The notes under the pieces are model-generated. The model did not search any database, had not been told where the DNA came from, and worked only from the letters and a program-made list of their open reading frames with translations. This document shows, piece by piece, positions 1,421-33,155 of a stretch of 64,000 nt of DNA (position 1 is its first letter; the number at the start of each line of letters is the position of its first letter). This stretch comes from Escherichia coli (lineage in GTDB: Bacteria > Pseudomonadota > Gammaproteobacteria > Enterobacterales > Enterobacteriaceae). Both the position numbers and the translations under genes were made by a program. The DNA is taken from assembly GCF_013315695.1 (NCBI RefSeq), contig NZ_CP054353.1; one strand, given 5' to 3'.

Positions 1421-2217
1421 AACGAATTAACGCTCTGACGATTGCCGGTACTGATCCGAGTGGTGGTGCGGGGATTCAGGCCGATCTTAAAACCTTCTCG
1501 GCACTTGGCGCTTATGGTTGCTCAGTTATTACTGCACTGGTGGCGCAAAATACCCGTGGCGTACAGTCGGTGTATCGCATTGAGCCTGATTTTGTCGCCG
1601 CCCAGCTCGATTCGGTGTTCAGTGATGTGCGAATCGACACCACTAAAATCGGTATGTTGGCGGAAACCGATATTGTTGAAGCGGTGGCAGAACGGTTGCA
1701 ACGTTATCAGATCCAAAACGTGGTACTCGACACCGTTATGCTGGCAAAAAGCGGCGACCCGCTGCTTTCACCTTCGGCGGTTGCTACGCTGCGCAGTCGA
1801 TTATTGCCACATGTTTCATTAATAACGCCAAACTTGCCCGAAGCAGCCGCCTTGCTCGACGCGCCACACGCGCGCACCGAACAGGAAATGCTGGAACAAG
1901 GGCGATCGCTGTTGGCGATGGGCTGTGGCGCAGTGCTAATGAAAGGTGGTCATCTGGATGATGAGCAAAGCCCGGACTGGCTGTTTACTCGTGAGGGGGA
2001 ACAACGGTTTACCGCACCGCGCATTATGACCAAAAACACTCACGGCACTGGTTGTACGCTCTCTGCGGCGTTGGCTGCACTGCGCCCGCGCCATACAAAC
2101 TGGGCTGACACCGTACAGGAGGCAAAAAGCTGGCTTTCATCGGCGTTAGCCCAGGCCGACACGCTGGAAGTTGGTCACGGTATTGGTCCGGTTCACCACT
2201 TCCACGCCTGGTGGTGA
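1417..2217 (+). CDS. thiD: Hydroxymethylpyrimidine/phosphomethylpyrimidine kinase
   Basis: 266-aa ORF recognised as ThiD (PfkB-like kinase); translationally coupled to thiM. Confidence 0.9.
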
Positions 2218-2272
2218 GCACCGTACTATAGCTGCTTTGGTGATTGTCAGCCTTTGGCGCTGACATTCAGGG

Positions 2273-3100: not shown

Positions 3101-3151
3101 ATAAGAAGCAGTGATATACTCCCACCAGACTCCCCGGCAGGAAAAAGACAA

Positions 3152-3898
3152 ATGGAACAAGCGCATACCCAGCTGATTGCCCAACTGAACGAACGTATTT
3201 TAGCGGCGGATAACACGCCGCTTTATATTAAGTTTGCCGAAACGGTAAAAAATGCCGTGCGCAGCGGGGTGCTGGAGCATGGCAATATTTTGCCCGGTGA
3301 GCGTGATTTAAGTCAGTTAACCGGCGTTTCGCGCATTACGGTGCGCAAGGCGATGCAGGCGCTGGAAGAAGAGGGCGTGGTGACGCGTTCGCGTGGTTAC
3401 GGCACGCAGATCAACAACATCTTCGAATACTCGCTGAAAGAAGCGCGGGGGTTTTCTCAGCAGGTGGTATTGCGCGGGAAAAAGCCCGATACGCTATGGG
3501 TTAACAAGCGTGTCGTGAAATGTCCCGAAGAAGTCGCGCAACAGCTGGCGGTCGAAGCGGGAAGTGATGTCTTTTTGCTTAAGCGTATTCGCTATGTCGA
3601 TGAAGAGGCGGTATCGATTGAGGAATCGTGGGTTCCGGCGCATTTAATTCATGATGTTGATGCCATCGGAATTTCTCTTTATGACTACTTCCGCAGCCAG
3701 CACATTTACCCACAACGTACGCGTTCCCGCGTTAGCGCCCGGATGCCGGATGCCGAGTTTCAGTCACATATTCAGTTAGATAGCAAAATACCGGTGCTGG
3801 TGATCAAGCAAGTGGCGCTTGACCAACAGCAACGGCCTATTGAGTACAGCATCAGCTACTGTCGCAGCGATCTATACGTTTTTGTGTGCGAGGAGTAG
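3152..3898 (+). CDS. yegW: GntR-family transcriptional regulator
   Basis: 248-aa ORF; N-terminal winged-HTH of GntR/HutC type (ILPGERDLSQLTGVSRITVRKA). Confidence 0.8.
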   Translation: MEQAHTQLIAQLNERILAADNTPLYIKFAETVKNAVRSGVLEHGNILPGERDLSQLTGVSRITVRKAMQALEEEGVVTRSRGYGTQINNIFEYSLKEARGFSQQVVLRGKKPDTLWVNKRVVKCPEEVAQQLAVEAGSDVFLLKRIRYVDEEAVSIEESWVPAHLIHDVDAIGISLYDYFRSQHIYPQRTRSRVSARMPDAEFQSHIQLDSKIPVLVIKQVALDQQQRPIEYSISYCRSDLYVFVCEE

Positions 3899-4837
3899 TT
3901 CCTCGCGCGTTGGCGCACAATCACCGCCCCGATGCCCGACAACCCACGACGCCACTGCATTGCCCAGTAATACGGCATCCGCCAGTGGCAGACCAGAGGC
4001 CAGCCCGGCAAGTACGCCGCCGGCATGACTGTCGCCCGCCCCAATGGTGTCTACAACTTGCGTTGGAAATGCCGGAATGCAGCCAGAAGCGTCGTTGCTG
4101 AAATACCATGCGCCCTCTTTATCGAGACGAATGATCAACGGCGCGGCAAATTTCTCCTGCCATTGCTTGCCTAGTGTTGTTATCTCTGCGGATAGAGCAA
4201 AACGTTCGGCGGCAATCTCAGCCTCCTGACGATTGAGTGACACTAAAGGTCGACAGGCCATGATCCGCGCCAGTAATACATCCGGGATATCGCCAATACG
4301 TGGGCCAAAATCGATAAACGGCGTCACGTCTTGCAGCTTTTCCAGCCATTCCACTAACAATTCGCCGCAGGGCGAGGCCAGTTGATAACCGGAAAAATAG
4401 AGCAGGCTGCCAGGCGCAACGGTTAATCGCGCCAGCCACTGGCGATTCCACTGATTTTCCACACCGCTGAATGACATAAAAGTGCGTTCGCCATCCGGCT
4501 CAACCAGCGCCAGACACCAGCCGTTATCACCTTCGGCGTTATCGATCAGGCTGATTAAGTCCTCTTTTGCCATCCGGTTGCGAATAATCTCCGCCCACAC
4601 CCCCTGACCGAGCGGCAAGGCATTACCCGCTTCGATGCCGAGGCGCTTTAATGCCACGGCAATATTCAGTGCACAGCCGCCAACGTTAACGCTCTGCTGT
4701 TTCAGTTCGATATCGCACCCACGCCAGGGGAGGGCATAAGCGTCGGCGATCACATCAATGACCGCCGCGCCGACGACCATCACCGGCTGACGCGTGGCTA
4801 ATTCAGGCAGCAGCGTGTGTAATCGAGCGCCGCTCAT
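3872..4837 (-). CDS. yegV: PfkB-family sugar kinase
   Basis: 321-aa ORF with ribokinase/PfkB-type motifs (DTIGAGD); convergent with and overlapping yegW by 27 nt. Confidence 0.8.
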   Translation of the reverse strand: MSGARLHTLLPELATRQPVMVVGAAVIDVIADAYALPWRGCDIELKQQSVNVGGCALNIAVALKRLGIEAGNALPLGQGVWAEIIRNRMAKEDLISLIDNAEGDNGWCLALVEPDGERTFMSFSGVENQWNRQWLARLTVAPGSLLYFSGYQLASPCGELLVEWLEKLQDVTPFIDFGPRIGDIPDVLLARIMACRPLVSLNRQEAEIAAERFALSAEITTLGKQWQEKFAAPLIIRLDKEGAWYFSNDASGCIPAFPTQVVDTIGAGDSHAGGVLAGLASGLPLADAVLLGNAVASWVVGHRGGDCAPTREELLLAHKNV

Positions 4838-5838
4838 ATCGCCTCCCGTTGTTGGCGATACTTCGCCAGCGCCGTGGCATAGCGGTTGAAATCAAGCTGA
4901 TTTACTGCATCCAGTTCCGCCTTTAACGCAGGATCGATAGCGTTAACGCCATGCAACGCGCCGCAAATTGCCGTCGCCATAGCACCGATGGTGTCTGTGT
5001 CGCCGCCAAGGTTAGCGCACAGGACGGCGCAACGGTTCGGGTCGGTTTGTGCCAGTTCAACCAGCGCAATGGCGCACGGAACGGACTCAATAGTGCTGGT
5101 ACCTGCGCCAACGACCTGGTAAAGCTGTTCGCTGGCGGATTCGGTGCCATCGGCATTGCGCACAATTTTCAGCGCAATCTCCAGACGTGCTGCCAGTGAG
5201 GCGCTGAAGGTAGTGATGCGTTTTTGTTGAGCATGTCGCGCAATTGAAGGCAGTGAATCAACAATCGCTGACCAGCTTTCTCCGTCAATGGCACGAGAAA
5301 TCGCCCATGCGATGACTACCGCCCCCGCAACCGCCAGATCGGATTTATGTGTCGGGCTGGAGGCCAGCGCCACATCATCAATAAAAGAGTCAATATCGCG
5401 CGCCGGAAGCAAACAACCTAATGGCGAGACGCGCATCGCTGCGCCGTTGGTCACGCCGTTATTTTCCAGTTCAGCAACGGGTTTACCGTCGCGAATGGCG
5501 TTAAGCGCAATCTTCGAGGTCGGACCTAGTACGTTTTTGTTAAAGGCGTCGAAACGCAGCGCCCAGTCGAGAATATTACGCCCAATCAGATCCGGATCGA
5601 TCTTGCCTTCACGTTCCAGTAACGCATCCGCCAGACACAGCGCCATCGAGGTATCGTCGGTGAATTCGGCGCGGTTAAAATAACAGGCTGCGTTATTCTC
5701 CTTTGGCCCAGGCAGAAAACGGTCAATCCAGCCAAAGTGTGCTTTGACGCGACTGCGCGGCCAAAGCTCGGAGGGCATCCCCATCGCATCCCCTAACGCC
5801 TGCCCATAAAGAGCACCGAGAATACGTTCTGTTTTCAT
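4834..5838 (-). CDS. yegU: ADP-ribosylglycohydrolase-family protein
   Basis: 334-aa ORF; synteny yegT-yegU-yegV; 4-nt overlap with yegV. Confidence 0.75.
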   Translation of the reverse strand: MKTERILGALYGQALGDAMGMPSELWPRSRVKAHFGWIDRFLPGPKENNAACYFNRAEFTDDTSMALCLADALLEREGKIDPDLIGRNILDWALRFDAFNKNVLGPTSKIALNAIRDGKPVAELENNGVTNGAAMRVSPLGCLLPARDIDSFIDDVALASSPTHKSDLAVAGAVVIAWAISRAIDGESWSAIVDSLPSIARHAQQKRITTFSASLAARLEIALKIVRNADGTESASEQLYQVVGAGTSTIESVPCAIALVELAQTDPNRCAVLCANLGGDTDTIGAMATAICGALHGVNAIDPALKAELDAVNQLDFNRYATALAKYRQQREAI

Positions 5839-7112
5839 TTAACTTCCCCTTGTGTCAACGCAATATCGCGATCATCGACCTTGATAGCCGTAATTTCGTT
5901 GTCGGATTCGCGGAAAAAAATCATGAACAGCACGGCGATAATGGCAATCATCACCGCGCCGAAAGTCCACATCCCGGCCCAGTTGAAAGTCAGTCCGTTT
6001 ACCGGTTCCTGATAAGCGAACATCTTTTCCATCATCACACCGCCAAGACGATAGCCGAGCAAACTGCCGAAGCCCTGGCAGCAGAGCGTGATCAGCCCCT
6101 GCGCGGCGGTACGCATATGCACGGGAGCTTTTTTATCGACATAGATGTAAGCGGTAACGTAGTAAAAATCGTAACTTACGCCGTGCAGCAAAATACCGAG
6201 GAACAGTAACGCGTAGGTGAAATATTCATCCGCACTACCGTAAATAAAGAAGCCATAGCGGATCGCAGCGGTGACCAGACCAAGTAATAATACCTTTTTG
6301 ATACCAAAGCGTTTGGTAAAAAACGGTAATGCCAGCATAAAGAAGATTTCAGAGAACTGGCCGAGCGTCATCCAGCCAGTGGCGTTTTTCATGCCAACTT
6401 CGGTCAGATAACCGTTGGCAAAGATGTAATAGAACGCCAGTGGCATCGCAAACAGGAATGAACAGAAGAAAAAGACGAGGAAGTTCTTATCGCGCAGCAG
6501 GATCAGCGCATCCAGGCCGAGCATGACTTTAATATCCATTTTGCCGGTGCTTTTTGGTGGCGTGTCGGGCAGGAAAAACGCAAACACACCAAGCAGAGCA
6601 GAACTTCCGGCGGTAATCAGCAGCGGGATGTTCGTCGGTGAGATATCGGCATAACCCAGCATTTGCGGCAAGAATCCACATGCCAGACCAGAGGCAATCC
6701 AGCCGATAGTGCCCATCACACGAATGCGCGGGAAATCACGCTCCACATCCGGCACGTTGGCAAAAGCGATACTGTTAGTCAGCGCAATGGTCGGCATATA
6801 GGTTAGCGAGTAGGCCAGCAGTAACGGGAAGAAGCCGGCAAAAGTGGTCTGTTGCGCAGCGAAATACATCAGCACCGCACCAGCGAACATCAATACCGCC
6901 AGCACTTTCTGTGCCGAGAAAAAGCGGTCAGTGATGGAGCCAACCAGAATCGGCGACAGGATCGCCGCAATGGCGGTACAGGCATACGACCAGCCAATTT
7001 CTCCGGCACTAAAACCGCTTTTACTTAACCACAACCACAATGGCACAAACCACGCGCCCCAGATAAACCATTCAACAAACATCATGAACGACAGCTTTGC
7101 TGTTGTTTTCAT
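5835..7112 (-). CDS. yegT: MFS nucleoside transporter family protein
   Basis: 425-aa highly hydrophobic multi-TM ORF; first gene of yegTUV operon by synteny. Confidence 0.8.
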   Translation of the reverse strand: MKTTAKLSFMMFVEWFIWGAWFVPLWLWLSKSGFSAGEIGWSYACTAIAAILSPILVGSITDRFFSAQKVLAVLMFAGAVLMYFAAQQTTFAGFFPLLLAYSLTYMPTIALTNSIAFANVPDVERDFPRIRVMGTIGWIASGLACGFLPQMLGYADISPTNIPLLITAGSSALLGVFAFFLPDTPPKSTGKMDIKVMLGLDALILLRDKNFLVFFFCSFLFAMPLAFYYIFANGYLTEVGMKNATGWMTLGQFSEIFFMLALPFFTKRFGIKKVLLLGLVTAAIRYGFFIYGSADEYFTYALLFLGILLHGVSYDFYYVTAYIYVDKKAPVHMRTAAQGLITLCCQGFGSLLGYRLGGVMMEKMFAYQEPVNGLTFNWAGMWTFGAVMIAIIAVLFMIFFRESDNEITAIKVDDRDIALTQGEVK

Positions 7113-7170
7113 CTTTTAATTCCTTCATGACAGGTAATGTAAGGTACGCGATGACGGTAATGACTCCAAC

Positions 7171-7674
7171 TTATTGATAGTGTTTTATGTTCAGATAATG
7201 CCCGATGACTTTGTCATGCAGCTCCACCGATTTTGAGAACGACAGCGACTTCCGTCCCAGCCGTGCCAGGTGCTGCCTCAGATTCAGGTTATGCCGCTCA
7301 ATTCGCTGCGTATATCGCTTGCTGATTACGTGCAGCTTTCCCTTCAGGCGGGATTCATACAGCGGCCAGCCATCCGTCATCCATATCACCACGTCAAAGG
7401 GTGACAGCAGGCTCATAAGACGCCCCAGCGTCGCCATAGTGCGTTCACCGAATACGTGCGCAACAACCGTCTTCCGGAGCCTGTCATACGCGTAAAACAG
7501 CCAGCGCTGGCGCGATTTAGCCCCGACATAGCCCCACTGTTCGTCCATTTCCGCGCAGACGATGACGTCACTGCCCGGCTGTATGCGCGAGGTTACCGAC
7601 TGCGGCCTGAGTTTTTTAAGTGACGTAAAATCGTGTTGAGGCCAACGCCCATAATGCGGGCTGTTGCCCGGCAT
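7171..7674 (-). CDS. insB: IS1 InsB' (transposase catalytic part; expressed as InsAB' by -1 frameshift)
   Basis: 167-aa ORF overlapping insA in the -1 frame; identical to the copy at 12049..12552. Confidence 0.9.
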
Positions 7675-7868
7675 CCAACGCCATTCATGGCCATATCAAT
7701 GATTTTCTGGTGCGTACCGGGTTGAGAAGCGGTGTAAGTGAACTGCAGTTGCCATGTTTTACGGCAGTGAGAGCAGAGATAGCGCTGATGTCCGGCGGTG
7801 CTTTTGCCGTTACGCACCACCCCGTCAGTAGCTGAACAGGAGGGACAGCTGATAGAAACAGAAGCCAC
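7593..7868 (-). CDS. insA: IS1 InsA (DNA-binding protein / transposition inhibitor)
   Basis: 91-aa ORF identical to the second copy at 11855..12130; zinc-finger [15 protein letters not shown]...CSHC. Confidence 0.95.
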
Positions 7869-8145
7869 TGGAGCACCTCAAAAACACCATCATACACTAA
7901 ATCAGTAAGTTGGCAGCATCACCCGCGATGACAATACCACTTAATAATACCTTTTAAATACCTTTGCGGTGAAAACTTGACCGCTGTAACATTTTTTCTG
8001 ATGAATCGAGCCAACAGAAAACGCTGAAAAAACATCCAAAAGATGGAAAAACTCGCCCGTAACGACCAGGATTATGATTGCCCGCAAAAGGCGGGCCAGG
8101 ACAATCCATAGCCGATATCCAATCGGAATTTACGGGAGCATAGTA

Positions 8146-9198
8146 ATGACAGATATTGCGCAGTTGCTTGGCAAAGACGCCGACAACCTTTTACAGCACC
8201 GTTGTATGACTATTCCTTCTGACCAGCTTTATCTCCCCGGACATGACTACGTAGACCGCGTGATGATTGACAATAATCGCCCGCCAGCGGTGTTACGTAA
8301 TATGCAGACGTTGTACAACACCGGGCGTCTGGCTGGCACAGGATATCTTTCTATTCTGCCGGTTGACCAGGGCGTTGAGCACTCTGCCGGAGCTTCATTT
8401 GCCGCTAACCCGCTCTACTTTGACCCGAAAAACATTGTTGAACTGGCGATCGAAGCGGGCTGTAACTGCGTGGCGTCAACTTACGGCGTGCTGGCATCGG
8501 TATCTCGGCGTTACGCGCATCGCATTCCATTCCTCGTCAAACTTAATCACAACGAGACGCTAAGTTACCCGAATACCTACGATCAAACGCTGTATGCCAG
8601 CGTGGAGCAGGCGTTCAATATGGGCGCGGTGGCGGTTGGGGCGACTATCTATTTTGGCTCGGAAGAGTCACGTCGCCAGATTGAAGAAATTTCTGCGGCT
8701 TTTGAACGTGCGCACGAGCTGGGCATGGTGACAGTGCTGTGGGCCTATTTGCGTAACTCCGCCTTTAAGAAAGATGGCGTTGATTACCATGTTTCCGCCG
8801 ACCTGACTGGTCAGGCGAACCATCTGGCGGCAACCATAGGTGCAGATATCGTCAAACAAAAAATGGCGGAAAATAACGGCGGCTATAAAGCGATTAATTA
8901 CGGTTATACCGACGATCGTGTTTACAGCAAATTGACCAGCGAAAACCCGATTGATCTGGTGCGTTATCAGTTAGCTAACTGCTATATGGGCCGGGCTGGG
9001 TTGATAAACTCCGGCGGTGCTGCGGGCGGTGAAACTGACCTCAGCGATGCAGTGCGTACTGCGGTTATCAACAAACGCGCTGGCGGAATGGGGCTGATTC
9101 TTGGACGTAAGGCGTTCAAGAAATCGATGGCTGACGGCGTGAAACTGATTAACGCCGTGCAGGACGTTTATCTCGATAGCAAAATTACTATCGCCTGA
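8146..9198 (+). CDS. fbaB: Fructose-bisphosphate aldolase class I
   Basis: ORF 8074..9198 recognised as FbaB; start placed at internal [10 protein letters not shown] (350 aa) as in K-12 from memory. Confidence 0.85.
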
Positions 9199-9283
9199 TA
9201 CGCCTTATACGAACAGCACTACCCCGTATGACGGAAAAGGCGTTTACGTCGCATCCGGCATAAAAACACGCGCACTTTGCTAC

Positions 9284-9311
9284 GGCTTCCCTATCGGGAG
9301 GCCGTTTTTTT
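9284..9311 (+). terminator. Rho-independent terminator candidate downstream of fbaB
   Basis: Hairpin GGCTTCCC-TATC-GGGAGGCC followed by TTTTTTT; a REP-like GCGTTTACGTCGCATCCGGCAT lies just upstream. Confidence 0.6.
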
Positions 9312-9371
9312 GCCTGTCATTCTGATTAATTTTCGAATTGTCGTTTTTGTGATCGTTATCTCGACATTTGA

Positions 9372-11571
<2,200 letters not shown>

Positions 11572-11854
11572 GGACGGTATATGACTAACCTGTTTGTTCG
11601 TAGCGGAATTTCTTTTGTCGATCGTAGCGAAGTTTTAGCCCATATCGGTAATGAGATGCTCGCGAAAGGTGTGGTTCATGATACCTGGCCACAGGCATTA
11701 ATTGCCAGAGAAGCAGAATTCCCTACCGGGATAATGCTTGAGCAGCACGCCATTGCAATACCGCATTGTGAGGCGATTCATGCTAAGTCGTCAGCCATTG
11801 GTGATGCTGCCAACTTACTGATTTAGTGTATGATGGTGTTTTTGAGGTGCTCCA

Positions 11855-12130
11855 GTGGCTTCTGTTTCTATCAGCTGTCCCTCCTGTTCAGCTACTGACG
11901 GGGTGGTGCGTAACGGCAAAAGCACCGCCGGACATCAGCGCTATCTCTGCTCTCACTGCCGTAAAACATGGCAACTGCAGTTCACTTACACCGCTTCTCA
12001 ACCCGGTACGCACCAGAAAATCATTGATATGGCCATGAATGGCGTTGGATGCCGGGCAACAGCCCGCATTATGGGCGTTGGCCTCAACACGATTTTACGT
12101 CACTTAAAAAACTCAGGCCGCAGTCGGTAA
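11855..12130 (+). CDS. insA: IS1 InsA
   Basis: 91-aa ORF, identical to copy 1. Confidence 0.95.
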
Positions 12131-12552
12131 CCTCGCGCATACAGCCGGGCAGTGACGTCATCGTCTGCGCGGAAATGGACGAACAGTGGGGCTATGTCGG
12201 GGCTAAATCGCGCCAGCGCTGGCTGTTTTACGCGTATGACAGGCTCCGGAAGACGGTTGTTGCGCACGTATTCGGTGAACGCACTATGGCGACGCTGGGG
12301 CGTCTTATGAGCCTGCTGTCACCCTTTGACGTGGTGATATGGATGACGGATGGCTGGCCGCTGTATGAATCCCGCCTGAAGGGAAAGCTGCACGTAATCA
12401 GCAAGCGATATACGCAGCGAATTGAGCGGCATAACCTGAATCTGAGGCAGCACCTGGCACGGCTGGGACGGAAGTCGCTGTCGTTCTCAAAATCGGTGGA
12501 GCTGCATGACAAAGTCATCGGGCATTATCTGAACATAAAACACTATCAATAA
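12049..12552 (+). CDS. insB: IS1 InsB'
   Basis: 167-aa ORF in the -1 frame relative to insA, identical to copy 1. Confidence 0.9.
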
Positions 12553-12840
12553 GTTGGAGTCATTACCTCAGCCATTTATCTGTTAAGGCCAACAAATAAA
12601 GTTCATTTTCAGCAAGCGGATGATGATAACGACGTGGCGGTATCGTTGGTTATTGCGTTGATTGTGGAAAATCCGCAGCAGCAATTGAAACTTTTACGCT
12701 GTTTATTTGGCAAGTTACAACAGCCCGATATCGTCGAGACACTAATTACTCTTCCTGAAACTCAGTTAAAGGAATACTTCACAAAGTATGTTTTAGATTC
12801 AGACGAATAAATCCCTCTGTAACAATAAAAAGGACTGTTT

Positions 12841-13125
12841 ATGAAACGCAAGATTATTGTCGCTTGCGGAGGCGCGGTTGCGACCTCCACGATGGCGGCG
12901 GAAGAAATTAAAGAGTTGTGTCAGAGTCATAATATTCCTGTTGAATTAATCCAGTGTCGGGTTAATGAAATAGAAACCTATATGGATGGCGTGCATTTGA
13001 TATGCACCACGGCCAAAGTGGATCGTAGTTTTGGCGATATTCCGTTAGTTCACGGCATGCCTTTTGTTTCTGGTGTCGGTATCGAAGCATTACAAAATAA
13101 AATTCTGACTATCTTACAGGGGTGA
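12841..13125 (+). CDS. gatB: Galactitol PTS EIIB component
   Basis: 94-aa ORF with PTS EIIB active-site cysteine context ([12 protein letters not shown]). Confidence 0.9.
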
Positions 13126-13128
13126 CCT

Positions 13129-14484
13129 ATGTTTTCAGAAGTCATGCGTTATATTCTCGACCTCGGCCCTACGGTGATGCTGCCGATTGTCATCATTATT
13201 TTTTCTAAAATATTAGGCATGAAGGCAGGCGATTGCTTTAAAGCGGGTCTGCATATCGGGATTGGCTTTGTTGGCATTGGCCTTGTGATTGGCTTAATGC
13301 TGGATTCCATTGGTCCGGCGGCGAAAGCGATGGCGGAAAATTTCGACCTGAATCTGCATGTGGTCGATGTCGGCTGGCCGGGCTCTTCACCCATGACCTG
13401 GGCGTCGCAAATTGCGCTGGTGGCGATTCCGATTGCGATTCTGGTTAACGTGGCGATGTTACTGACCCGTATGACGCGGGTGGTAAATGTTGATATCTGG
13501 AATATCTGGCATATGACCTTCACCGGCGCGTTGCTGCATCTGGCAACCGGTTCATGGATGATAGGGATGGCGGGTGTGGTAATTCACGCGGCGTTTGTTT
13601 ATAAGCTCGGCGACTGGTTTGCCCGCGATACCCGAAATTTCTTTGAGCTGGAAGGCATTGCCATCCCGCACGGTACGTCGGCGTATATGGGGCCAATTGC
13701 GGTGCTGGTGGATGCTATCATCGAGAAAATCCCAGGCGTTAACCGAATTAAATTTAGTGCCGACGATATTCAGCGCAAATTTGGTCCGTTTGGCGAGCCT
13801 GTCACCGTGGGTTTTGTGATGGGGCTGATTATCGGCATCCTCGCGGGTTACGATGTCAAAGGTGTATTGCAGCTGGCGGTAAAAACGGCGGCGGTTATGC
13901 TGCTGATGCCACGGGTGATTAAACCCATCATGGATGGTTTAACGCCCATCGCTAAGCAGGCCCGTAGTCGTTTACAGGCGAAGTTCGGCGGTCAGGAGTT
14001 CCTGATTGGCCTGGATCCCGCATTACTGCTGGGGCATACGGCGGTGGTATCGGCAAGCCTGATTTTTATCCCGCTCACCATTTTAATTGCTGTTTGTGTG
14101 CCGGGTAATCAGGTGCTGCCGTTTGGCGACCTTGCCACCATCGGCTTCTTTGTGGCGATGGCGGTCGCGGTGCATCGTGGAAATCTGTTCCGCACCTTAA
14201 TCTCGGGTGTCATCATTATGAGCATCACCCTGTGGATCGCGACGCAAACTATTGGTTTGCACACCCAACTGGCGGCTAATGCGGGCGCGTTAAAAGCCGG
14301 GGGTATGGTGGCTTCAATGGATCAGGGCGGTTCTCCCATTACCTGGTTACTGATTCAGGTTTTCTCCCCGCAAAATATTCCCGGTTTCATTATTATCGGC
14401 GCAATTTATCTGACCGGTATTTTCATGACCTGGCGTAGAGCGCGTGGTTTTATTAAACAAGAGAAAGCCGTTCTCGCAGAATAA
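13129..14484 (+). CDS. gatC: Galactitol PTS EIIC permease
   Basis: 451-aa polytopic membrane ORF following gatB. Confidence 0.9.
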   Translation: MFSEVMRYILDLGPTVMLPIVIIIFSKILGMKAGDCFKAGLHIGIGFVGIGLVIGLMLDSIGPAAKAMAENFDLNLHVVDVGWPGSSPMTWASQIALVAIPIAILVNVAMLLTRMTRVVNVDIWNIWHMTFTGALLHLATGSWMIGMAGVVIHAAFVYKLGDWFARDTRNFFELEGIAIPHGTSAYMGPIAVLVDAIIEKIPGVNRIKFSADDIQRKFGPFGEPVTVGFVMGLIIGILAGYDVKGVLQLAVKTAAVMLLMPRVIKPIMDGLTPIAKQARSRLQAKFGGQEFLIGLDPALLLGHTAVVSASLIFIPLTILIAVCVPGNQVLPFGDLATIGFFVAMAVAVHRGNLFRTLISGVIIMSITLWIATQTIGLHTQLAANAGALKAGGMVASMDQGGSPITWLLIQVFSPQNIPGFIIIGAIYLTGIFMTWRRARGFIKQEKAVLAE

Positions 14485-14531
14485 TTTTTACCTGAGGGGG
14501 AGGTTATCCCCCTTAACAATCAGGAGTTTTT

Positions 14532-15572
14532 ATGAAATCAGTGGTGAATGATACTGATGGTATCGTGCGCGTAGCAGAAAGCGTCATTCCTGAAATTAAA
14601 CATCAGGATGAGGTGCGGGTAAAAATTGCCAGCTCGGGCTTATGTGGTTCCGATTTACCCAGGATATTTAAAAATGGTGCACATTATTATCCAATAACGT
14701 TAGGCCATGAATTTAGCGGCTATATTGATGCGGTGGGATCCGGTATTGATGATTTACATCCCGGCGATGCGGTTGCCTGTGTGCCGTTATTACCCTGTTT
14801 TACTTGTCCAGAGTGTCTGAAAGGGTTTTATTCCCAGTGCGCAAAATATGATTTTATTGGCTCACGGCGTGATGGTGGATTTGCCGAATATATTGTCGTT
14901 AAGCGAAACAATGTCTTTGCACTACCTGCGGATATGCCTATTGAGGATGGCGCTTTTATTGAACCGATTACCGTTGGCCTGCATGCGTTCCATTTAGCGC
15001 AAGGATGTGAGAATAAAAACGTTATTATTATTGGTGCCGGAACCATTGGCCTGCTGGCAATTCAGTGCGCTGTCGCGCTGGGAGCAAAGAGTGTGACGGC
15101 TATCGACATTAGCTCAGAAAAACTGGCACTGGCAAAATCTTTCGGTGCGATGCAAACATTTAACAGCCGTGAAATGAGCGCGCCGCAAATACAGGGCGTT
15201 TTACGCGAGCTGCGCTTTAATCAGCTTATCCTCGAGACGGCTGGCGTCCCGCAAACCGTCGAACTGGCGGTAGAGATTGCCGGTCCTCATGCCCAACTGG
15301 CGCTGGTGGGCACGTTGCATCAGGATCTGCATTTAACATCGGCAACGTTTGGCAAAATATTGCGTAAAGAGCTGACGGTGATTGGCAGTTGGATGAACTA
15401 CTCCAGCCCTTGGCCGGGGCAGGAGTGGGAAACGGCGAGCCGGTTGCTGACAGAACGTAAGTTAAGCCTGGAGCCATTAATCGCTCACCGTGGAAGCTTT
15501 GAAAGCTTCGCCCAGGCGGTGCGTGACATCGCTCGTAATGCTATGCCGGGCAAAGTGTTGCTCATTCCCTGA
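14532..15572 (+). CDS. gatD: Galactitol-1-phosphate 5-dehydrogenase (Zn-dependent, MDR family)
   Basis: 346-aa ORF with zinc-ADH motifs (GHEFSG; GAGTIGL Rossmann fold). Confidence 0.9.
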   Translation: MKSVVNDTDGIVRVAESVIPEIKHQDEVRVKIASSGLCGSDLPRIFKNGAHYYPITLGHEFSGYIDAVGSGIDDLHPGDAVACVPLLPCFTCPECLKGFYSQCAKYDFIGSRRDGGFAEYIVVKRNNVFALPADMPIEDGAFIEPITVGLHAFHLAQGCENKNVIIIGAGTIGLLAIQCAVALGAKSVTAIDISSEKLALAKSFGAMQTFNSREMSAPQIQGVLRELRFNQLILETAGVPQTVELAVEIAGPHAQLALVGTLHQDLHLTSATFGKILRKELTVIGSWMNYSSPWPGQEWETASRLLTERKLSLEPLIAHRGSFESFAQAVRDIARNAMPGKVLLIP

Positions 15573-15677
15573 AACCGCGGGCCAGCGTGATGCTGGCCCG
15601 GTATTGTGCAAAACAGATCATTCACCAATGGTCCCCCTTCGTTTACACTAGCCACAATTGAATATGGGTAAATGACG

Positions 15678-16451
15678 ATGAATTCATTCGAGCGAAGGAA
15701 TAAGATCATCCAATTAGTGAATGAACAGGGAACCGTGCTTGTTCAGGATCTGGCGGGAGTATTTGCTGCCTCGGAAGCGACAATCCGTGCCGATTTGCGC
15801 TTTCTCGAACAAAAAGGCGTGGTTACGCGCTTTCATGGCGGTGCGGCGAAAATAATGTCCGGTAATAGTGAAACCGAGACCCAGGAAGTCGGGTTTAAAG
15901 AGCGATTTCAGCTCGCCAGCGCGCCAAAAAACAGAATAGCGCAGGCGGCAGTCAAAATGATCCACGAAGGGATGACCGTTATTCTCGACAGCGGAAGTAC
16001 GACAATGCTTATCGCCGAAGGATTAATGACCGCCAAAAATATCACGGTGATTACCAACAGTCTCCCGGCAGCATTTGCCCTTTCCGAAAATAAAGACATT
16101 ACTCTGGTCGTCTGCGGTGGCACGGTCCGCCATAAAACGCGCTCGATGCATGGCTCCATTGCTGAGCGTTCATTGCAGGATATTAATGCCGATTTAATGT
16201 TTGTCGGTGCTGATGGTATTGATGCGGTTAATGGTATTACGACCTTTAATGAAGGCTATTCGATTAGCGGGGCGATGGTCACAGCCGCAAATAAAGTGAT
16301 TGCCGTTCTCGATTCATCGAAATTTAATCGTCGCGGTTTTAATCAGGTACTGCCAATCGAAAAAATTGACATTATTATTACCGATGATGCTGTGTCTGAG
16401 GTGGATAAACTGGCATTGCAGAAGACACGGGTAAAATTAATTACGGTGTAG
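15678..16451 (+). CDS. gatR: DeoR-family repressor of the gat operon, apparently intact
   Basis: ORF 15672..16451 (259 aa) uninterrupted; N-terminal DeoR HTH and C-terminal sugar-phosphate-binding domain. Start codon choice uncertain. Confidence 0.8.
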   Translation: MNSFERRNKIIQLVNEQGTVLVQDLAGVFAASEATIRADLRFLEQKGVVTRFHGGAAKIMSGNSETETQEVGFKERFQLASAPKNRIAQAAVKMIHEGMTVILDSGSTTMLIAEGLMTAKNITVITNSLPAAFALSENKDITLVVCGGTVRHKTRSMHGSIAERSLQDINADLMFVGADGIDAVNGITTFNEGYSISGAMVTAANKVIAVLDSSKFNRRGFNQVLPIEKIDIIITDDAVSEVDKLALQKTRVKLITV

Positions 16452-16460
16452 TATTGTTCT

Positions 16461-16496
16461 GTATGCCGGATAAGGTGTTTACACCGCATCCGGCAT
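16461..16496. repeat. REP (repetitive extragenic palindromic) element
   Basis: GTATGCCGGATAAGGTGTTTACACCGCATCCGGCAT, the typical REP consensus, between convergent gatR and yegS. Confidence 0.7.
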
Positions 16497-16532
16497 TACG
16501 GATTCTCCCTGGTTCAACAGAGAATAGTTTGA

Positions 16533-17432
16533 TTAACGCAATAATGGACAATCTGGTGGTAATCGACAACGCAACGCCGCCGGAAGTATTTCAATATGGA
16601 AGTTTTGCCCACTCAACGGTTCGCCATCAAGATTAAAAGTGATTTCGTGTGGGGCTTGTATATCAAACCACGACGAAGCGCCTTCGATAATATTCGGGTT
16701 ATCTTCGTCAGATTTTAAGGTTGATACGAGAGCCGGAAGAATTTCATCGCCGGTAAAAATGCGCAGTTGCAGCAAGCCATCGTTAATTAACGCGTTCGGG
16801 CACAATTGCTGACCGCCACCGGCCTGACGCCCGTTACCAATACCAATGACCAGGGCGTCACCTTGCCAGTGAAAGTTTTCACCGCGGATTTCACAACGGT
16901 CCGGTTGCAGAGTATCCATGCGCATTAAGCCATGAATGATGTAAGAGACGCCACCCAGCGCGGCTTTTAATTTTTCCGGCGTTTCTGTGGTAATACGCGT
17001 CCCAAATCCGCCTGTCGCCATATTAATAAAACAGGTTTGTTTGTTGACCTGCGCTATATCTATCGCAATGGCGTTACCGGCAATTGCCAGTTTCAGCGCC
17101 TTATCCAGTGCCTCAGGAATCCCTACACTGGTGGCAAAATCATTGGCGGTTCCTAATGGCAAAATTCCCAGCGCGGGTATGTCATCCCCCTCACACTGAA
17201 TCAACGCCGTAGAAACTTCATTAATGGTGCCATCGCCACCACCGGCAATCACCGTTGCGACGCCCAACTTCCGGGCCTCCTCTACATATCGTGCGGCATC
17301 GCCTTTCTCCCAGGTGACCCGCACATGGATCGTCATTCCTTCCTCACGCAACAGCATAATTGCTTCGCGCAGGGGTAGATTGTCAGTACTTTTGCCATTA
17401 AGAATCAGTAAGCTGGCGGGAAATTCTGCCAT
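16533..17432 (-). CDS. yegS: Lipid kinase (diacylglycerol kinase catalytic domain family)
   Basis: 299-aa ORF with DAGK_cat motifs (GGDGT); K-12-like synteny. Confidence 0.85.
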
Positions 17433-17846
17433 GATCGTATGTGCCTTTATGATTGGTCTGTAGATAGTGTAGAGCAGAAAAGAAAAGGTAGAGTCAGAAC
17501 AGGATGAAAGTCGGAGGATAAAAAGTCAGTTCAAGTATGGAAGATTCAGTGGTTACCACCAGGAGCTTGCAATGGGGACAGCGAATACTAACGGCAGCCA
17601 CCGATAAATTTCAAAAAAGAGCATATACCTAATATTCAACTAAACAGTGGCATCTTCAATATACTATTAAAAATATATTAACCCCCCCATGGGGTTACCC
17701 GGAAGGGCATCCGTGTCTGTAATTCCTACTTATGTAGGAAATGTTGTACAGAACATTTATTATAATCCTATTCAAATATAATAATCATGCCATTATTATA
17801 TTTAAACACCAGAGCGTGTCGTTGGTATTTAATGGGGGAAGGTAAG

Positions 17847-18164
17847 ATGAAAAAGATAGCTGCTATATCATTAATTAGTGTTTTTCTTATGTCTGGTTGT
17901 GCTGTGCATAATGATGAGACAAGTATCGGTAAATTTGGCCTTGCATATAAAAGTAATATTCAGCGTAAACTCGATAACCAATACTACACCGAAGCCGAAG
18001 CTTCTTTAGCCAGGGGCAGAATTTCTGGTGCAGAAAATATAGTAAAAAATGATGCAGCTCATTTCTGTGTTACTCAGGGAAAAAAAATGCAGATAGTTGA
18101 CCTGAAGACAGAAGGTGCAGGATTACATGGCGTCGCTCGTCTGACATTCAAATGTGGAGAGTGA
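17847..18164 (+). CDS. yegR: Small lipoprotein
   Basis: Start placed at MKKIAAISLISVFLMSGC (lipobox LMSGC) within ORF 17787..18164; 105 aa. Confidence 0.7.
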   Translation: MKKIAAISLISVFLMSGCAVHNDETSIGKFGLAYKSNIQRKLDNQYYTEAEASLARGRISGAENIVKNDAAHFCVTQGKKMQIVDLKTEGAGLHGVARLTFKCGE

Positions 18165-18324
18165 GAATATTTTTTGGTAAGCGTCAAATATGCGCGTTCT
18201 GGCTGTGCGTAGCCGGAACCTGTGGGAGCACGATGCCGATAAGTGAAAGGCATCGTGCTATGAAGGAGGATTCTATCGATGTGGTCAATGGAAGATGGTT
18301 ACCAGGATACGACGGCTTATGCAT

Positions 18325-18411
18325 AAAAAATAAGCCCGTGTAAGGGAGATTACACAGGCTAAGGAGGTGGTTCCTGGTACAGCTAGCATTTTATGGGTTA
18401 TGTTTTTCAGC
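18325..18411 (-). ncRNA. cyaR: CyaR (RyeE) Hfq-dependent small RNA
   Basis: Minus-strand sequence GCTGAAAAACATAACCCATAAAATGCTAGCTGTACCAGGAACCACCTCCTTAGCCTGTGTAATCTCCCTTACACGGGCTTATTTTTT matches CyaR as I recall it, including the terminal hairpin and U-run. Confidence 0.85.
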
Positions 18412-18495
18412 GAAACGGATGATAACCTTAATAAATGCAGCTGTATGTGATCGGTTTCTAAGAATTTTCCATCCGGGAAAAATAATCGAAATTAA

Positions 18496-19857: not shown

Positions 19858-19959
19858 AATTCTCTCGTTCTGATGACAGGTCAGATCCGCTTCACCTGAT
19901 GAAGCGGTTAGGGGAGTGCCCCCACTTTAAGGGCGGGCATTGTAGCGCAATCGGCGGGT

Positions 19960-20256
19960 TTAGCTCCAGTGTAAATGTCTGGAGGCGTCCTGGTTTTGGT
20001 TAAGGATACGAATGACGATAATTTCCTCTGGCGATTGCAGGAAATAAATTACGTGGCGTTCAAAAGGAAGAACAAAAATACCTTCGCCTAATTCAGGTCT
20101 GGGCGTACCTATATTATTGTTACTCAGAATCTGGAGAACGTCTGAAAGATGTTCCACATATCTGTCGGCTTGTGGTTCGCCGAAATGGTGATAGCTGTAA
20201 TACCAGATGCCTTCTAAATCCTCATTGGCTTTTGGCATGAGTTTTATAGTACGCAC
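19960..20256 (-). CDS. ParE-like type II toxin (RelE/ParE superfamily)
   Basis: 98-aa ORF directly downstream of a ParD-like ORF with a 1-nt gap; C-terminal ParE-like signature (IIVIRILNQNQD). Confidence 0.65.
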   Translation of the reverse strand: MRTIKLMPKANEDLEGIWYYSYHHFGEPQADRYVEHLSDVLQILSNNNIGTPRPELGEGIFVLPFERHVIYFLQSPEEIIVIRILNQNQDASRHLHWS

Positions 20257-20257
20257 A

Positions 20258-20509
20258 TTATTTCCTTATCCCTGCTTTCACCTTCCGTAAAAACGCGTCC
20301 TTTTCCCACGGCTGAGCTTCACCACTACTCAACCCTTCAGCGAGCATGTCACGTAACGCTTGCAGGCGAGACTCTGCTTGCTTTTCTCGAAGTAAGCGCA
20401 GCGACTCACGGATCACTTCGCTTTGGGTGCGATAGTCGCCGGATTCAATTAAGGACTCGATAAATTCACGCAACTCATCGCCGAGATCAACCGTCATCGT
20501 TCTGGCCAT
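20258..20509 (-). CDS. ParD-like antitoxin (ribbon-helix-helix)
   Basis: Start placed at MARTMTVDLGDELREFIESLIESGDYRTQSEVIRESLRLL (about 83 aa); RHH fold typical of ParD/CopG antitoxins. Confidence 0.65.
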   Translation of the reverse strand: MARTMTVDLGDELREFIESLIESGDYRTQSEVIRESLRLLREKQAESRLQALRDMLAEGLSSGEAQPWEKDAFLRKVKAGIRK

Positions 20510-20762
20510 TTTACACCCGCCTGTAAGTAAAAATCTTACATCAGTGTATTTCATAAACCGGATAGCGTCACGAAAGTATTAGAAGATATTTTGGCATATG
20601 AACATGTTCAGGAAGATAAGTATGGGATGGTAAACAAAGAAAGCACAACGAGTGCTCGTCAGTGCCCACTATTTTAATGGCGGAGGTTAATCTTAATTAT
20701 CAATAACTAAGAGTTGTTTTGATATAAAGCCGGACGCCAACAACCCACGCCCGGCATCGTAA

Positions 20763-32496: not shown

Positions 32497-32640
32497 GAAA
32501 CGGGAAAGCCCCTCCCGAGGAAGGGGCCTTAAATAAGGAAAGGGTCATGATGAAGCTACTCATCATCGTGGTGCTCTTAGTGATTAGCTACCCTGCATAC
32601 TAAGACTACCAGGGCGGGGGAAACCCCGCTCTACCCTCAC
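32497..32640 (-). ncRNA. sibB: Sib-family antisense sRNA (antitoxin) covering the ibs ORF; ends approximate
   Basis: Inferred from the known ibs/sib arrangement; minus-strand hairpin (GCCCCT...AGGGGC at 32508..32527) followed by a U-rich tract would form its terminator. Confidence 0.5.
32547..32603 (+). CDS. ibsB: Ibs-family type I toxin peptide, 18 aa (MMKLLIIVVLLVISYPAY)
   Basis: Tiny hydrophobic ORF with RBS AAGGAAAGGG, inside the first of two about 325-bp tandem repeat units; A/B naming is tentative. Confidence 0.75.
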   Translation: MMKLLIIVVLLVISYPAY

Positions 32641-32825
32641 TCCTGAAATTATGCCTTCACGATAAGATTGTCAATCCGCAGGCTTTGTAGTCTGCGATCC
32701 TGCCAGCAAATATTCTTTGCGAGTCGTTACGGAATAATCACCGAGGAAACTATTTTGTTCACGCGTTAGCGATAGACTGCATTCAGGGCGAAAGGAGGTA
32801 AGCCGACGATTTCAGCGGGACGCTG

Positions 32826-32962
32826 AAACGGGAAACCCTCTCCCGGAGAAGAGGGCTTTTAATAAGGAAAGGGTTATGATGAAGCACGTCATCATACTGG
32901 TGATACTCTTAGTGATTAGCTTCCAGGCTTACTAAGAACACCAGGGGGAGGGGGAAACCTCT
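32826..32962 (-). ncRNA. sibA: Sib-family antisense sRNA (second copy); ends approximate
   Basis: Same architecture as the first unit; hairpin CCCTCT...AGAGGG at 32835..32855. Confidence 0.5.
32876..32935 (+). CDS. ibsA: Ibs-family type I toxin peptide, 19 aa (MMKHVIILVILLVISFQAY)
   Basis: Second tiny hydrophobic ORF in the second repeat unit with the same RBS context; A/B naming tentative. Confidence 0.75.
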   Translation: MMKHVIILVILLVISFQAY

Positions 32963-33155
32963 CCCTAACCCTCACTCCTGAAATTATGTCACTCCGCCCT
33001 TAGTGTCAATCGACGGCTCTCCGTTCTTGCGAGGCGAATAGCAAAATTTTCTGCGCCGCCGGGCCTAATTCTGAAAGTTTCTTCGTTTGCTCTTATTTCA
33101 TTATTGCAATCGGTATGATACCGGACCTCAATAATTCTCTAAGAAAGGATTTCTT

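Follow-up and report, generated by a model that had tools for sequence, protein, structure and literature searches.

The yegP–yegQ interval of Escherichia coli contains two small genes in some genomes and nothing but a short spacer in others, which raises the question of whether this pair is a genuine toxin–antitoxin (TA) module, how it reached this site and what maintains it. We analyzed a 64,000-nucleotide stretch of E. coli DNA carrying the pair, referred to as the window. Lying between yegP and yegQ, the locus is a ParD/ParE toxin–antitoxin operon of the ordinary two-gene kind. Gene order in this region is mdtD-baeS-baeR-yegP-parD-parE-yegQ-CyaR-yegR-yegS, the direct neighbors being yegP (DUF1508) and yegQ, alias trhP (peptidase U32). 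The pair shows a type II TA layout: both genes are small, adjacent and co-directional, the antitoxin gene comes first, a single leader lies upstream, and the TAA stop codon of parD (20260–20258) is separated by one base from the GTG of parE at 20256. A first-pass annotation of this DNA had described two minus-strand ORFs 1 nt apart, the upstream one encoding a ribbon-helix-helix (RHH) protein of about 83 aa and the downstream one a 98-aa ParE-like toxin, in the canonical antitoxin–toxin order. Both ORFs were found (Table 1), and profile, PDB-sequence and fold evidence identified the upstream product as ParD and the downstream product as ParE, with both proteins scoring above the curated cut-offs of their families. 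An ORF pair with such profile matches lies far beyond chance. As RefSeq already names both proteins, the module is not new to databases; its automatic annotation has both genes right, except that the ParD start is placed 15 codons too early. Our literature searches found no experimental work on this module and nothing specific on the yegP–yegQ locus.

Table 1. Features of the parDE cassette and its borders in the window.
Feature	Position	Strand	Remarks
yegP intrinsic terminator	20721–20755	−	GCCGGGCG...CGTCCGGC plus T-rich tail; context, outside the module
Whole cassette, ~780 bp	19949–20728	−	bounds from alignment with empty sites
Perfect 12-bp palindrome TGAACATGTTCA	20599–20610		~30 bp upstream of the −35 box
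Putative σ70 promoter	20543–20571	−	−35 GTGACG (20571–20566), 17-nt spacer, −10 TACACT (20548–20543)
Palindrome TGTAAG-N7-CTTACA	20522–20540	−	between −10 box and ribosome-binding site
Purine-rich Shine-Dalgarno-like stretch GGCGGGTG	20514–20521	−	5' of the parD ATG at 20509
parD	20258–20509	−	ATG 20509; 83-aa antitoxin, N-terminal ribbon-helix-helix DNA-binding, C-terminal ParE-binding
AAGGA, Shine-Dalgarno-like, for parE	20263–20267	−	within the last parD codons; read from sequence
parE	19960–20256	−	GTG start; 98-aa toxin
yegQ/trhP leader, conserved	19858–19948	−	downstream of parE

The antitoxin matched PF03693 (E 4.3e-19, residues 1–78 of 83) and TIGR02606 (E 2.3e-25; 88.4 bits versus a cut-off of 46.2), the "CC2985 antidote" model; the generic RHH_1 model stayed below threshold (18.6 versus 20.5 bits). 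Its sequence matches in the PDB were PrpA (7ycs_D, 1.9e-27), VcParD2 (7b22), CcParD1 (3kxe_C) and MtParD1 (8c24_C). The alignment with PrpA spans ParD residues 2–78, the alignment with VcParD2 begins at residue 1, and the DNA-reading β-strand RTMTVD is identical in ParD and PrpA. The longest ORF for parD reaches the ATG at 20554 and would yield 98 aa, as annotated in RefSeq; the true start should be that of the 83-aa protein. Transcription is predicted to start near 20536, downstream of the ATG at 20554, which would rule out the 98-aa form. Of two carrier genomes that were inspected closely, one has a frameshift flag on parD, which applies solely to the longer 98-aa model.

The toxin matched PF05016 (E 6.9e-14; 52.6 bits versus a cut-off of 23). 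Both this model and the RefSeq name "RelE/ParE family" would equally fit an mRNA interferase of the RelE type instead of a gyrase poison. However, only ParE-type chains were retrieved in the PDB sequence search, namely PrpT (6.2e-13), MtParE1, CcParE1 and VcParE2 (~2e-7) as well as MoParE3, and no RelE, YoeB, HigB or YafQ chain matched at E ≤ 1. The AF2 model (pLDDT 94.2) has the topology β1-α1-α2-β2-β3-β4, with strands at residues 3–6, 60–65, 68–74 and 78–86 and helices at residues 8–25 and 27–46, the latter forming the N-terminal α-hairpin that is specific to ParE folds. In Foldseek, the best 22 hits were of the ParE type with query-normalized TM-scores of 0.73–0.87, except for MtParE2 (8c26) at 0.56, and the RelE, YoeB and YafQ types (TM ~0.5–0.68) ranked below all ParE-type chains. 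A 113-sequence alignment of the family has eight nearly invariant positions, all of which the toxin retains, and its partner is a ParD (PF03693) rather than a RelB. A RelE-type activity is thus hardly conceivable, and profile, PDB-sequence and fold searches concur in placing the pair among the solved ParD–ParE complexes, not among the RelE-type RNases.

Certain chromosomal ParE proteins, e.g. ParE1 of Pseudomonas aeruginosa, have been reported to be weakly toxic or non-toxic. VcParE2, CcParE1 and MtParE1 carry Trp at a key position of the hairpin, whereas the window toxin has Phe25, which aligns with Trp25 of VcParE2. Since a W25F exchange in the VcParE2 context lowered toxicity (preprint 10.1101/2025.07.24.666505), the toxin may be mild. 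By analogy with VcParE2 (PMC3001019) and MtParE1 (PMC10899793), for which inhibition and poisoning of gyrase have been demonstrated, the window ParE would target gyrase and its toxicity would be neutralized by ParD. The ParE protein of Yersinia pYV is likewise toxic and triggers the SOS response (PMC10203498).

Among solved structures, the best match for both proteins is PrpA–PrpT of Pseudoalteromonas rubra plasmid pMBL6842 (PDB 7YCS/7YCU), which combines a PF03693 antitoxin with a PF05016 toxin just as the window pair does. PrpT superimposes on the ParE model with a TM-score of 0.87 and an rmsd of 1.1 Å, although identity is only ~33%. PrpA autoregulates its own operon and also binds plasmid iterons (PMC7848731). 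PrpAT is plasmid-borne and iteron binding by PrpA sets copy number, whereas the window module is chromosomal and has no replicon nearby. For PrpT/PrpA, the closest solved relative, no gyrase assay has been reported. Vibrio cholerae ParD2–ParE2, Caulobacter crescentus ParD1–ParE1 and Mycobacterium tuberculosis ParDE1 belong to the same family and fold (TM 0.83–0.85); their toxins are 26–31% identical to the window ParE, and operators and complex stoichiometries differ among the three. RK2 ParDE, ParDE-I (YacA/YacB) of IncI/IncF plasmids and PaaR–PaaA–ParE of O157 also possess ParE-fold toxins (PaaA2–ParE2 scored TM 0.77 in the fold search). However, antitoxins of other families are found in RK2 (PF09386) and ParDE-I (COG3905; PMC6614396, PMC7848731), and identity with ParDE-I was rejected on this ground (PMC6614396). 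The O157 system employs the PaaA antitoxin and the separate regulator PaaR, whereas the window ParD carries its own RHH domain. A three-component system, in which a distinct regulator gene accompanies an antitoxin devoid of a DNA-binding domain, was also rejected, as the antitoxin has this domain and no supported third ORF is present in the 253-bp leader (20510–20762), which contains just two unsupported ORFs of 28–33 aa. The pair is neither the O157 parD-parE3 (named in PMC3141249) nor PaaA-ParE, because the yegP–yegQ site of Sakai is empty.

A plasmid relative is parDE of the Klebsiella pneumoniae IncFIB/FII plasmid pINF078-VP, with 92% identity for ParD and 67% for ParE. It shares gene order, the GTG start of a 98-aa ParE and the operator-like palindrome with the window module, but differs by a parD of 88 aa, a 14-nt overlap with parE and a consensus TATAAT promoter. 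Synonymous sites are saturated, and the split between the chromosomal and the pINF078-VP lineages must therefore be old. A frameshift has turned the related copy examined on the E. coli IncF plasmid pJJ1887-5 into a pseudogene, and for many similar matches on IncF plasmids no CDS is annotated.

A consensus promoter scan made no call on the gene strand. The putative parDE promoter agrees with the consensus at 8 of 12 positions, which is below the scanner threshold and accounts for its being missed; it would be weak, and its assignment follows from alignment of the TACACT −10 box with the perfect TATAAT of the Klebsiella plasmid homolog. The palindrome downstream of the −10 box is likely the ParD operator. 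Its position is kept on the E. coli chromosome, in pJJ1887-5 (as TGTAAA...CTTACA), in pINF078-VP (as GTAAGA...TCTTAC) and in P. gergoviae, and the DNA around it cannot be aligned among these four diverged lineages. The footprinted PrpA motif is TTTG(T/A)AAT with a TGTAA core (PMC7848731, PMC9731233), and only this core recurs in the window palindrome. The full motif RTTTGWAATR is not recognizable in the window promoter: allowing ≤2 mismatches, it had 205 matches versus ~305 expected by chance, with nothing convincing in the promoter. Promoter and operator function, as well as autoregulation, are predicted. The 12-bp palindrome further upstream does not vary among the window, SE11, PapRG-04-4 and E. 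whittamii, but the plasmid homolog lacks it. A terminator-like hairpin at 20641–20657 was not counted as a part, because the structure is not kept in PapRG-04-4. Opposite the purine-rich stretch preceding parD, alignments show GGAGAG or GGAGA in strain PapRG-04-4, in E. whittamii and in the plasmid copy from Klebsiella. The location of AAGGA inside parD and the 1-nt gap suggest translational coupling of parE.

The first-pass annotation had taken K-12 to lack a parDE module at this site and had described the module as apparently strain-specific and accessory. Alignment of the interval confirmed the former: the cassette corresponds to DNA missing in K-12, in O157 Sakai and in E. albertii, all of which carry a 21-bp spacer, as seen in K-12 strain BW25113, in place of ~780 bp. 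On one side the cassette starts directly after the stem of the yegP terminator, which is common to K-12 (the scanner called a shorter inner hairpin with the same right arm, 20741–20729), and on the other side it abuts the yegQ/trhP leader, whose sequence does not differ between K-12, Sakai and E. albertii. The terminator scan revealed no terminator-like site on the gene strand between parE and yegQ, and parDE transcripts may therefore read into yegQ. The accessory status likewise held, since 1843 of 5426 complete E. coli genomes (~1/3) carry the cassette, but this frequency marks a common polymorphism rather than a strain-specific element. Carriers have one chromosomal copy of the cassette, located at yegP–yegQ wherever checked, and it also occurs in E. 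whittamii.

Its accessory, mobile-type distribution points to a horizontal origin of the cassette. An insertion is supported by the empty site of E. albertii, by the low GC content of the cassette (43.4% versus 51.9% for the window) and by its low divergence from E. whittamii. Between E. coli and E. whittamii the cassette is 2–5 times less diverged than the flanking genes, with a pS of 0.19 versus 0.32–0.57 in the flanks (Fisher p 0.006 to 1e-7). Apparently, the cassette was transferred from one Escherichia species to another and reached precisely the same position with no recombinase of its own; no recombinase gene was found within it. Flanking direct or inverted repeats were considered as signatures of transposition or integration, but only short matches at chance level were detected. 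One imperfect 14-nt repeat occurs at 19915–19928 and 20661–20674. We also considered that the 21-bp spacer of K-12 is the scar of a deletion leaving the 3' end of parE. In shuffling tests p was ~0.01 versus E1V33 but 0.32 versus the window, and this reading was dropped because of the latter value and because E. albertii has the same spacer. The K-12 spacer is instead read as the ancestral empty site, perhaps with some microhomology (TTTAC...GAGC) where the cassette was inserted. In the field, the way in which TA cassettes integrate is unsettled (PMC7167474).

The spacer between yegP and yegQ exists in at least four states: empty, with parDE, with a parDE remnant, or with a 5-kb island of uncharacterized genes, which takes the place of the cassette in 298 genomes. 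Internally deleted, decayed copies are found in Escherichia sp. E1V33 and E3659. The module has existed for long enough that decay or overwriting has affected several lineages. Elsewhere, decay is seen in P. gergoviae and IncF plasmid copies. Because relatives are so often decayed, loss of the module is evidently tolerated. In the E. coli carriers sampled, the module is intact, both CDSs being annotated under the match in 39 of 39 genomes. Both genes are under purifying selection. ParD is identical in protein sequence across three E. coli alleles, with 3–4 synonymous and no non-synonymous changes, and its dN/dS is 0–0.03 overall (0.03 versus E. whittamii), as compared to 0.11–0.26 for parE. 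Relatives were detected on 880 enterobacterial plasmids at the DNA level, and tblastn with ParE found homologs on 2640 plasmids.

We consider it probable that the ~780-bp chromosomal cassette carries a functional, canonical type II ParD–ParE operon. In such a scheme, the weak σ70 promoter would direct synthesis of a bicistronic parD-parE mRNA. ParD would dimerize via its N-terminal RHH domain and, alone or with ParE, bind the TGTAAG-N7-CTTACA palindrome downstream of the −10 box to repress the operon, while its C-terminal part would wrap round the toxin and thereby neutralize it. Translation of parE from its GTG by means of the AAGGA inside parD would keep the toxin below the antitoxin. Once ParD is depleted, with proteolysis as the likeliest route by comparison with other ParD proteins, unbound ParE would poison DNA gyrase, so that DNA breaks would arise, the SOS response would be induced, and cells would filament and stop growing. 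Toxicity, the gyrase target and protease dependence are in this scheme transferred from relatives. Most likely, the module is maintained as a selfish addiction cassette whose stabilizing or stress-related effect, if any, is minor.

Other roles can be envisaged. The chromosomal ParD might mainly serve to neutralize the ParE of related plasmid parDE systems, or to repress these systems via the common operator, and thereby spare the host from post-segregational killing. The high identity of ParD relative to ParE in pINF078-VP, the operator-like palindrome common to the plasmid copies and the abundance of plasmid relatives (880 by DNA, 2640 by ParE) are in line with this idea, as are the many frameshifted IncF copies in E. 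coli, which would make sense if selection ceased to favor the copies on plasmids. However, ParD–ParE specificity may hinge on a few C-terminal residues (Aakre et al. 2015, cited in PMC7354431), and six of the seven ParD differences to pINF078-VP fall into the C-terminal half. Moreover, a benefit from the antitoxin alone predicts decay of parE, yet parE is under purifying selection, and we judge this role improbable. We see just as little prospect for a largely inert passenger, i.e. a pair with a weak or non-toxic ParE that plays no part in cell physiology and that drift and hitch-hiking maintain up to its eventual deletion or overwriting. This would account for its absence from ~2/3 of E. coli genomes and from E. 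albertii, its replacement by the 5-kb island, the internal deletions in E1V33 and E3659, the decay in P. gergoviae and IncF plasmids, and the Phe at the position of VcParE2 Trp25. But both ORFs are intact in the carriers sampled, with dN/dS clearly less than 1, and conservation extends to the family-invariant residues, the operator-like palindrome and the ribosome-binding sites.

Some type II TA systems serve in abortive infection. A phage that depletes ParD or stops host transcription could in this manner unleash ParE to kill or arrest the cell, and it would fit that the yegP–yegQ spacer is a variable hotspot, alternatively occupied by the 5-kb island, and that ParE matches two phage protein families. 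However, neither protein matches PADLOC-DB and no defense genes adjoin the cassette, which makes a role in phage defense very doubtful. It is also conceivable that ParD is the selected component, because ParD is far more conserved than ParE and the operator-like palindrome is common to plasmids. It could act in trans on related plasmid parDE modules, either against addiction or through cross-repression, or, like PrpA, have other DNA targets. In addition, unterminated parDE transcription could tie the tRNA-modification gene trhP (yegQ) to TA autoregulation in one third of strains. We regard this combined scenario as unlikely.

The locus adds one uncharacterized chromosomal ParDE module to the accessory genome of E. 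coli, which is little beyond bookkeeping. By-products are the 83-aa ParD in place of the 98-aa RefSeq protein and, with TGTAAG-N7-CTTACA, a predicted operator of this ParD subfamily that is amenable to testing. The yegP–yegQ hotspot with its at least four states is a further one. ParE toxins and fluoroquinolones share the same enzyme target, and as one third of strains carry the module, it can reasonably be included as a covariate when quinolone tolerance is studied (PMC10575684). An apparent remnant of the module in strain HS-01 consists of DNA riddled with homopolymers, probably through assembly error.

The two co-directional minus-strand ORFs reported in the first-pass annotation are present exactly as described, an antitoxin ORF followed by a toxin ORF. 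The toxin ORF starts with GTG one base after the TAA stop codon of the antitoxin ORF. The pair is flanked by yegP (DUF1508) upstream and yegQ (trhP; peptidase U32) downstream, yielding the gene order mdtD-baeS-baeR-yegP-parDE-yegQ-CyaR-yegR-yegS. RefSeq already names both products as RelE/ParE-family toxin and ParD-family antitoxin (WP_001259171.1, WP_001329834.1). The module is a known and previously annotated kind of system; a paper on this particular module was not found.

Profile searches bore out the proposed identity as ParE-like toxin and cognate antitoxin. The toxin matched PF05016 (ParE_toxin; E 6.9e-14), while the antitoxin matched PF03693 (ParD_antitoxin; 4.3e-19) and NCBIfam TIGR02606 (ParD, CC2985 type; 2.3e-25), all above the curated cut-offs. 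Both the Pfam family and the RefSeq name leave the toxin ambiguous between RelE and ParE. Among PDB sequences, the toxin exclusively matched ParE-type chains, with PrpT of the Pseudoalteromonas rubra plasmid pMBL6842 (7ycs) scoring best (6.2e-13), followed by MtParE1 (8c24), CcParE1 (3kxe) and VcParE2 (7r5a) at ~2e-7 and also MoParE3; no RelE, YoeB or HigB chain was matched even at E <= 1. Correspondingly, the antitoxin matched PrpA (1.9e-27), VcParD2, CcParD1 and MtParD1. An exhaustive HMMER search retrieved 2143 representative clusters of toxin homologues (E <= 1e-3), and a 113-sequence alignment drawn from them revealed that all eight nearly invariant family positions are retained. The AlphaFold model based on the same alignment (pLDDT 94.2) has the ParE topology b1, a1-a2 hairpin, b2-b4. 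In Foldseek searches against the PDB, the top 22 hits were ParE-type toxins with query-normalised TM-scores of 0.73-0.87, MtParE2 (8c26; 0.56) being the exception, whereas RelE, YoeB and YafQ types scored ~0.5-0.68. Taken together, sequence matches, family positions, topology and structural ranking settle the assignment of the toxin to the ParE branch.

RefSeq/PGAP models the antitoxin as a 98-aa protein, but four observations favour ATG 20509, and thus an 83-aa protein, as the true start. Profile and PDB alignments open at residue 1-2 of the shorter form, and plasmid ParD homologues begin with MARTMTV. PapRG-04-4 and E. whittamii carry an extra nucleotide immediately ahead of ATG 20509 that disrupts the upstream extension, which explains the RefSeq "frameshifted" flag on this parD gene, and the 83-aa protein is intact and identical or nearly so. 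Finally, ATG 20509 is preceded by a conserved GGAG-type ribosome-binding site, and the proposed -10 box falls within the supposed extension.

Features of the parDE locus and additional RNA elements in the window
Feature	Position	Strand	Details
TPP riboswitch	501-597		Rfam
CyaR sRNA	18328-18413		Rfam; adjoins yegQ
yegQ/trhP leader	19858-19948		91 bp
Hairpin in yegQ/trhP leader	19907-19887		CCGCTTCA-TCAGG-TGAAGCGG; perfect 8-bp stem
Imperfect copy of leader motif	19915-19928		TTAAAGTGGGGGCACT; downstream of parE
Module-specific DNA (cassette)	19949-20728		~780 bp
parE	20256-19960	-	GTG start; 98 aa
Shine-Dalgarno-like site of parE		-	AAGGA; 6 nt upstream of GTG, within parD; from sequence
parD, favoured start	20509-20258	-	ATG; 83 aa
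parD, RefSeq/PGAP model	20554-20258	-	ATG; 98 aa; extension 20510-20554
Candidate operator palindrome	20540-20522	-	TGTAAG-N7-CTTACA; directly downstream of putative promoter
Putative promoter, -10	20548-20543	-	TACACT
Putative promoter, -35		-	GTGACG; 17 nt upstream of TACACT; leader alignment
12-bp palindrome	20599-20610		TGAACATGTTCA; perfect; upstream of putative parD promoter
Motif in parD leader	20660-20674		ATTAAAATAGTGGGCACT
Sib antitoxin RNAs	32532-33009		two in tandem, between mdtA and yegL; Rfam RF00113, 142-150 bits
JUMPstart element	48575-48613		Rfam; upstream of wza
algC RNA motif	63109-63158		Rfam

The module-specific DNA opens directly after the yegP terminator stem and closes 11 nt past the parE stop codon. 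A single chromosomal copy of the full cassette is carried by 1843 of 5426 complete E. coli genomes, at the yegP-yegQ locus wherever checked. Identity to the window is >=99% in 188 carriers and 95-99% in 1655; sampled members of the latter group such as the B1 strain SE11 exhibit about 97.4%. The full cassette also occupies the same site in E. whittamii (ParE 93% identical), while Escherichia sp. E1V33 and E3659 share one internally deleted remnant. Comparative alignment detected an empty site with a nearly identical 146-bp spacer in K-12 derivatives, O157 Sakai and E. albertii. The module had been thought to be missing from K-12 and to be a strain-specific accessory element: its absence from K-12 is confirmed and it is indeed accessory, but it is a common polymorphism rather than strain-specific.

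Empty sites could alternatively mean that an ancestral gene pair was lost in K-12. However, the window strain and E. whittamii have diverged far less at synonymous sites in the module than in its flanks: dS is 0.20 for parD and 0.23 for parE (combined pS 0.19), as compared to 0.42 for yegQ (pS 0.32; Fisher p versus module 0.0058), 0.72 for baeR (pS 0.46; 9.4e-07) and 1.05 for yegP (pS 0.57; 1.5e-07). This low divergence, the GC content of the cassette (43% versus 52% for the window) and the empty site in E. albertii leave ancestral loss unsupported and support horizontal acquisition of the cassette and its exchange among Escherichia lineages into one same site.

Another allele, present in 298 of the 5426 genomes, carries an island encoding a PcfJ-domain protein, DUF1266 and DUF4034 proteins and one hypothetical protein. 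This 5.2-kb island (positions 6280-11480 of the E. coli A36 locus) replaces the core of the cassette, corresponding to window positions 19979-20666. Since both cassette ends persist, i.e. the last six parE codons plus stop (99% identity) and 61 bp of the leader (95% identity), the island overwrote a resident parDE. Two independent rearrangements, the A36 island junction and the E1V33/E3659 deletion, break no more than about 10 bp away from the parD-leader motif ATTAAAATAGTGGGCACT; this may reflect either a recombination hotspot or chance. E. coli HS-01 has homopolymer-rich DNA at the parDE position (874-1500 of its locus) translating to K and F runs; errors in sequencing or assembly are a much likelier source of this DNA than a genuine allele. 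The LC-1302-2020 locus matches the parDE region by 100% and loses collinearity with the window further left (1-18495), with offsets of 167 bp at yegS and 1387 bp at the TPP riboswitch, so the window derives from a related but distinct strain.

In carriers, the pair is maintained rather than decaying, as indicated by low dN/dS and intact annotation: each of the 39 carrier genomes sampled has an annotated CDS for both genes at the match. Three E. coli alleles encode the same ParD protein (3-4 synonymous, 0 non-synonymous differences), which differs from E. whittamii ParD by one residue (dN/dS about 0.03), while dN/dS of ParE is 0.11-0.26. Frequent loss shows that the module is dispensable.

Relatives at the DNA level (60-80% identity) are found on 880 plasmids and ParE homologues (tblastn) on 2640, chiefly of Klebsiella, Escherichia and Enterobacter. 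Antitoxins are usually expected to diverge faster than toxins, but this ParD–ParE subfamily shows the reverse: the antitoxin is unusually better conserved, since ParD is 92% but ParE only 67% identical to the intact copy on K. pneumoniae plasmid pINF078-VP (1995-2544 of its locus), with synonymous sites being saturated. Likewise, ParD matches PrpA far more strongly than ParE matches PrpT. Some other relatives are decayed. A frameshift has turned parDE of the E. coli IncF plasmid pJJ1887-5 (2500-3045 of its locus) into a pseudogene, and an annotated CDS is lacking from many similar matches on IncF plasmids. The copy between alr and tyrB in P. gergoviae ATCC 33028 (3750-4290 of its locus) lost its start codon (ATG to ATA) and its parE is truncated at codon 43.

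The leader alignment combined three alleles from E. coli with those of E. whittamii and one Klebsiella plasmid homologue. The putative parD promoter matches 8/12 consensus positions, its -10 box facing a consensus TATAAT in the Klebsiella homologue; a generic promoter scan did not call it. The TGTAAG-N7-CTTACA palindrome recurs at the matching position on both pJJ1887-5 and pINF078-VP as well as in the decayed copy of P. gergoviae, although the surrounding DNA is unalignable; it is a phylogenetic footprint and the best operator candidate. PrpA and window ParD have an identical DNA-reading strand (RTMTVD), and the footprinted PrpA motif TTTG(T/A)AAT has a TGTAA core (PMC7848731, PMC9731233); the full motif is absent here. 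The AAGGA site inside parD would fit translational coupling of parE. As the terminator scan found no terminator-like site between parE and yegQ, transcriptional read-through into trhP is possible. The TGAACATGTTCA palindrome is invariant across the four Escherichia alleles examined and missing from the plasmid homologue. K-12, O157 Sakai and E. albertii share an identical yegQ/trhP leader, although their coding flanks differ by 6-11%; the leader has no Rfam match and may serve to regulate trhP.

A canonical ParD–ParE module is the best-supported account of the locus. ParDE-I (YacA/YacB), whose antitoxin is a COG3905 protein (PMC6614396), is ruled out, as are the O157 ParE systems by the empty Sakai site and a three-component system by the lack of a supported third ORF at the module. 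PADLOC matched the module to no known defence system. ParD would sequester ParE and repress its own operon through the palindrome; upon loss of ParD, ParE would be freed to poison gyrase. The analysis itself shows family, fold, integrity and selection; from the relatives VcParE2 (PMC3001019), MtParE1 (PMC10899793) and pYV ParE (PMC10203498) we infer the function of promoter and operator as well as toxicity and gyrase as the target. Phe25 of window ParE aligns with Trp25 of VcParE2, in which W25F reduced toxicity (preprint 10.1101/2025.07.24.666505), and PrpA, the nearest solved relative, has an extra DNA-binding role (PMC7848731).

Elsewhere in the window, the Sib RNAs oppose ibs type I toxin genes and represent a second toxin–antitoxin locus unrelated to parDE. 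The ogrK P2 remnant, which lies beside yegQ in K-12, is absent in this strain.
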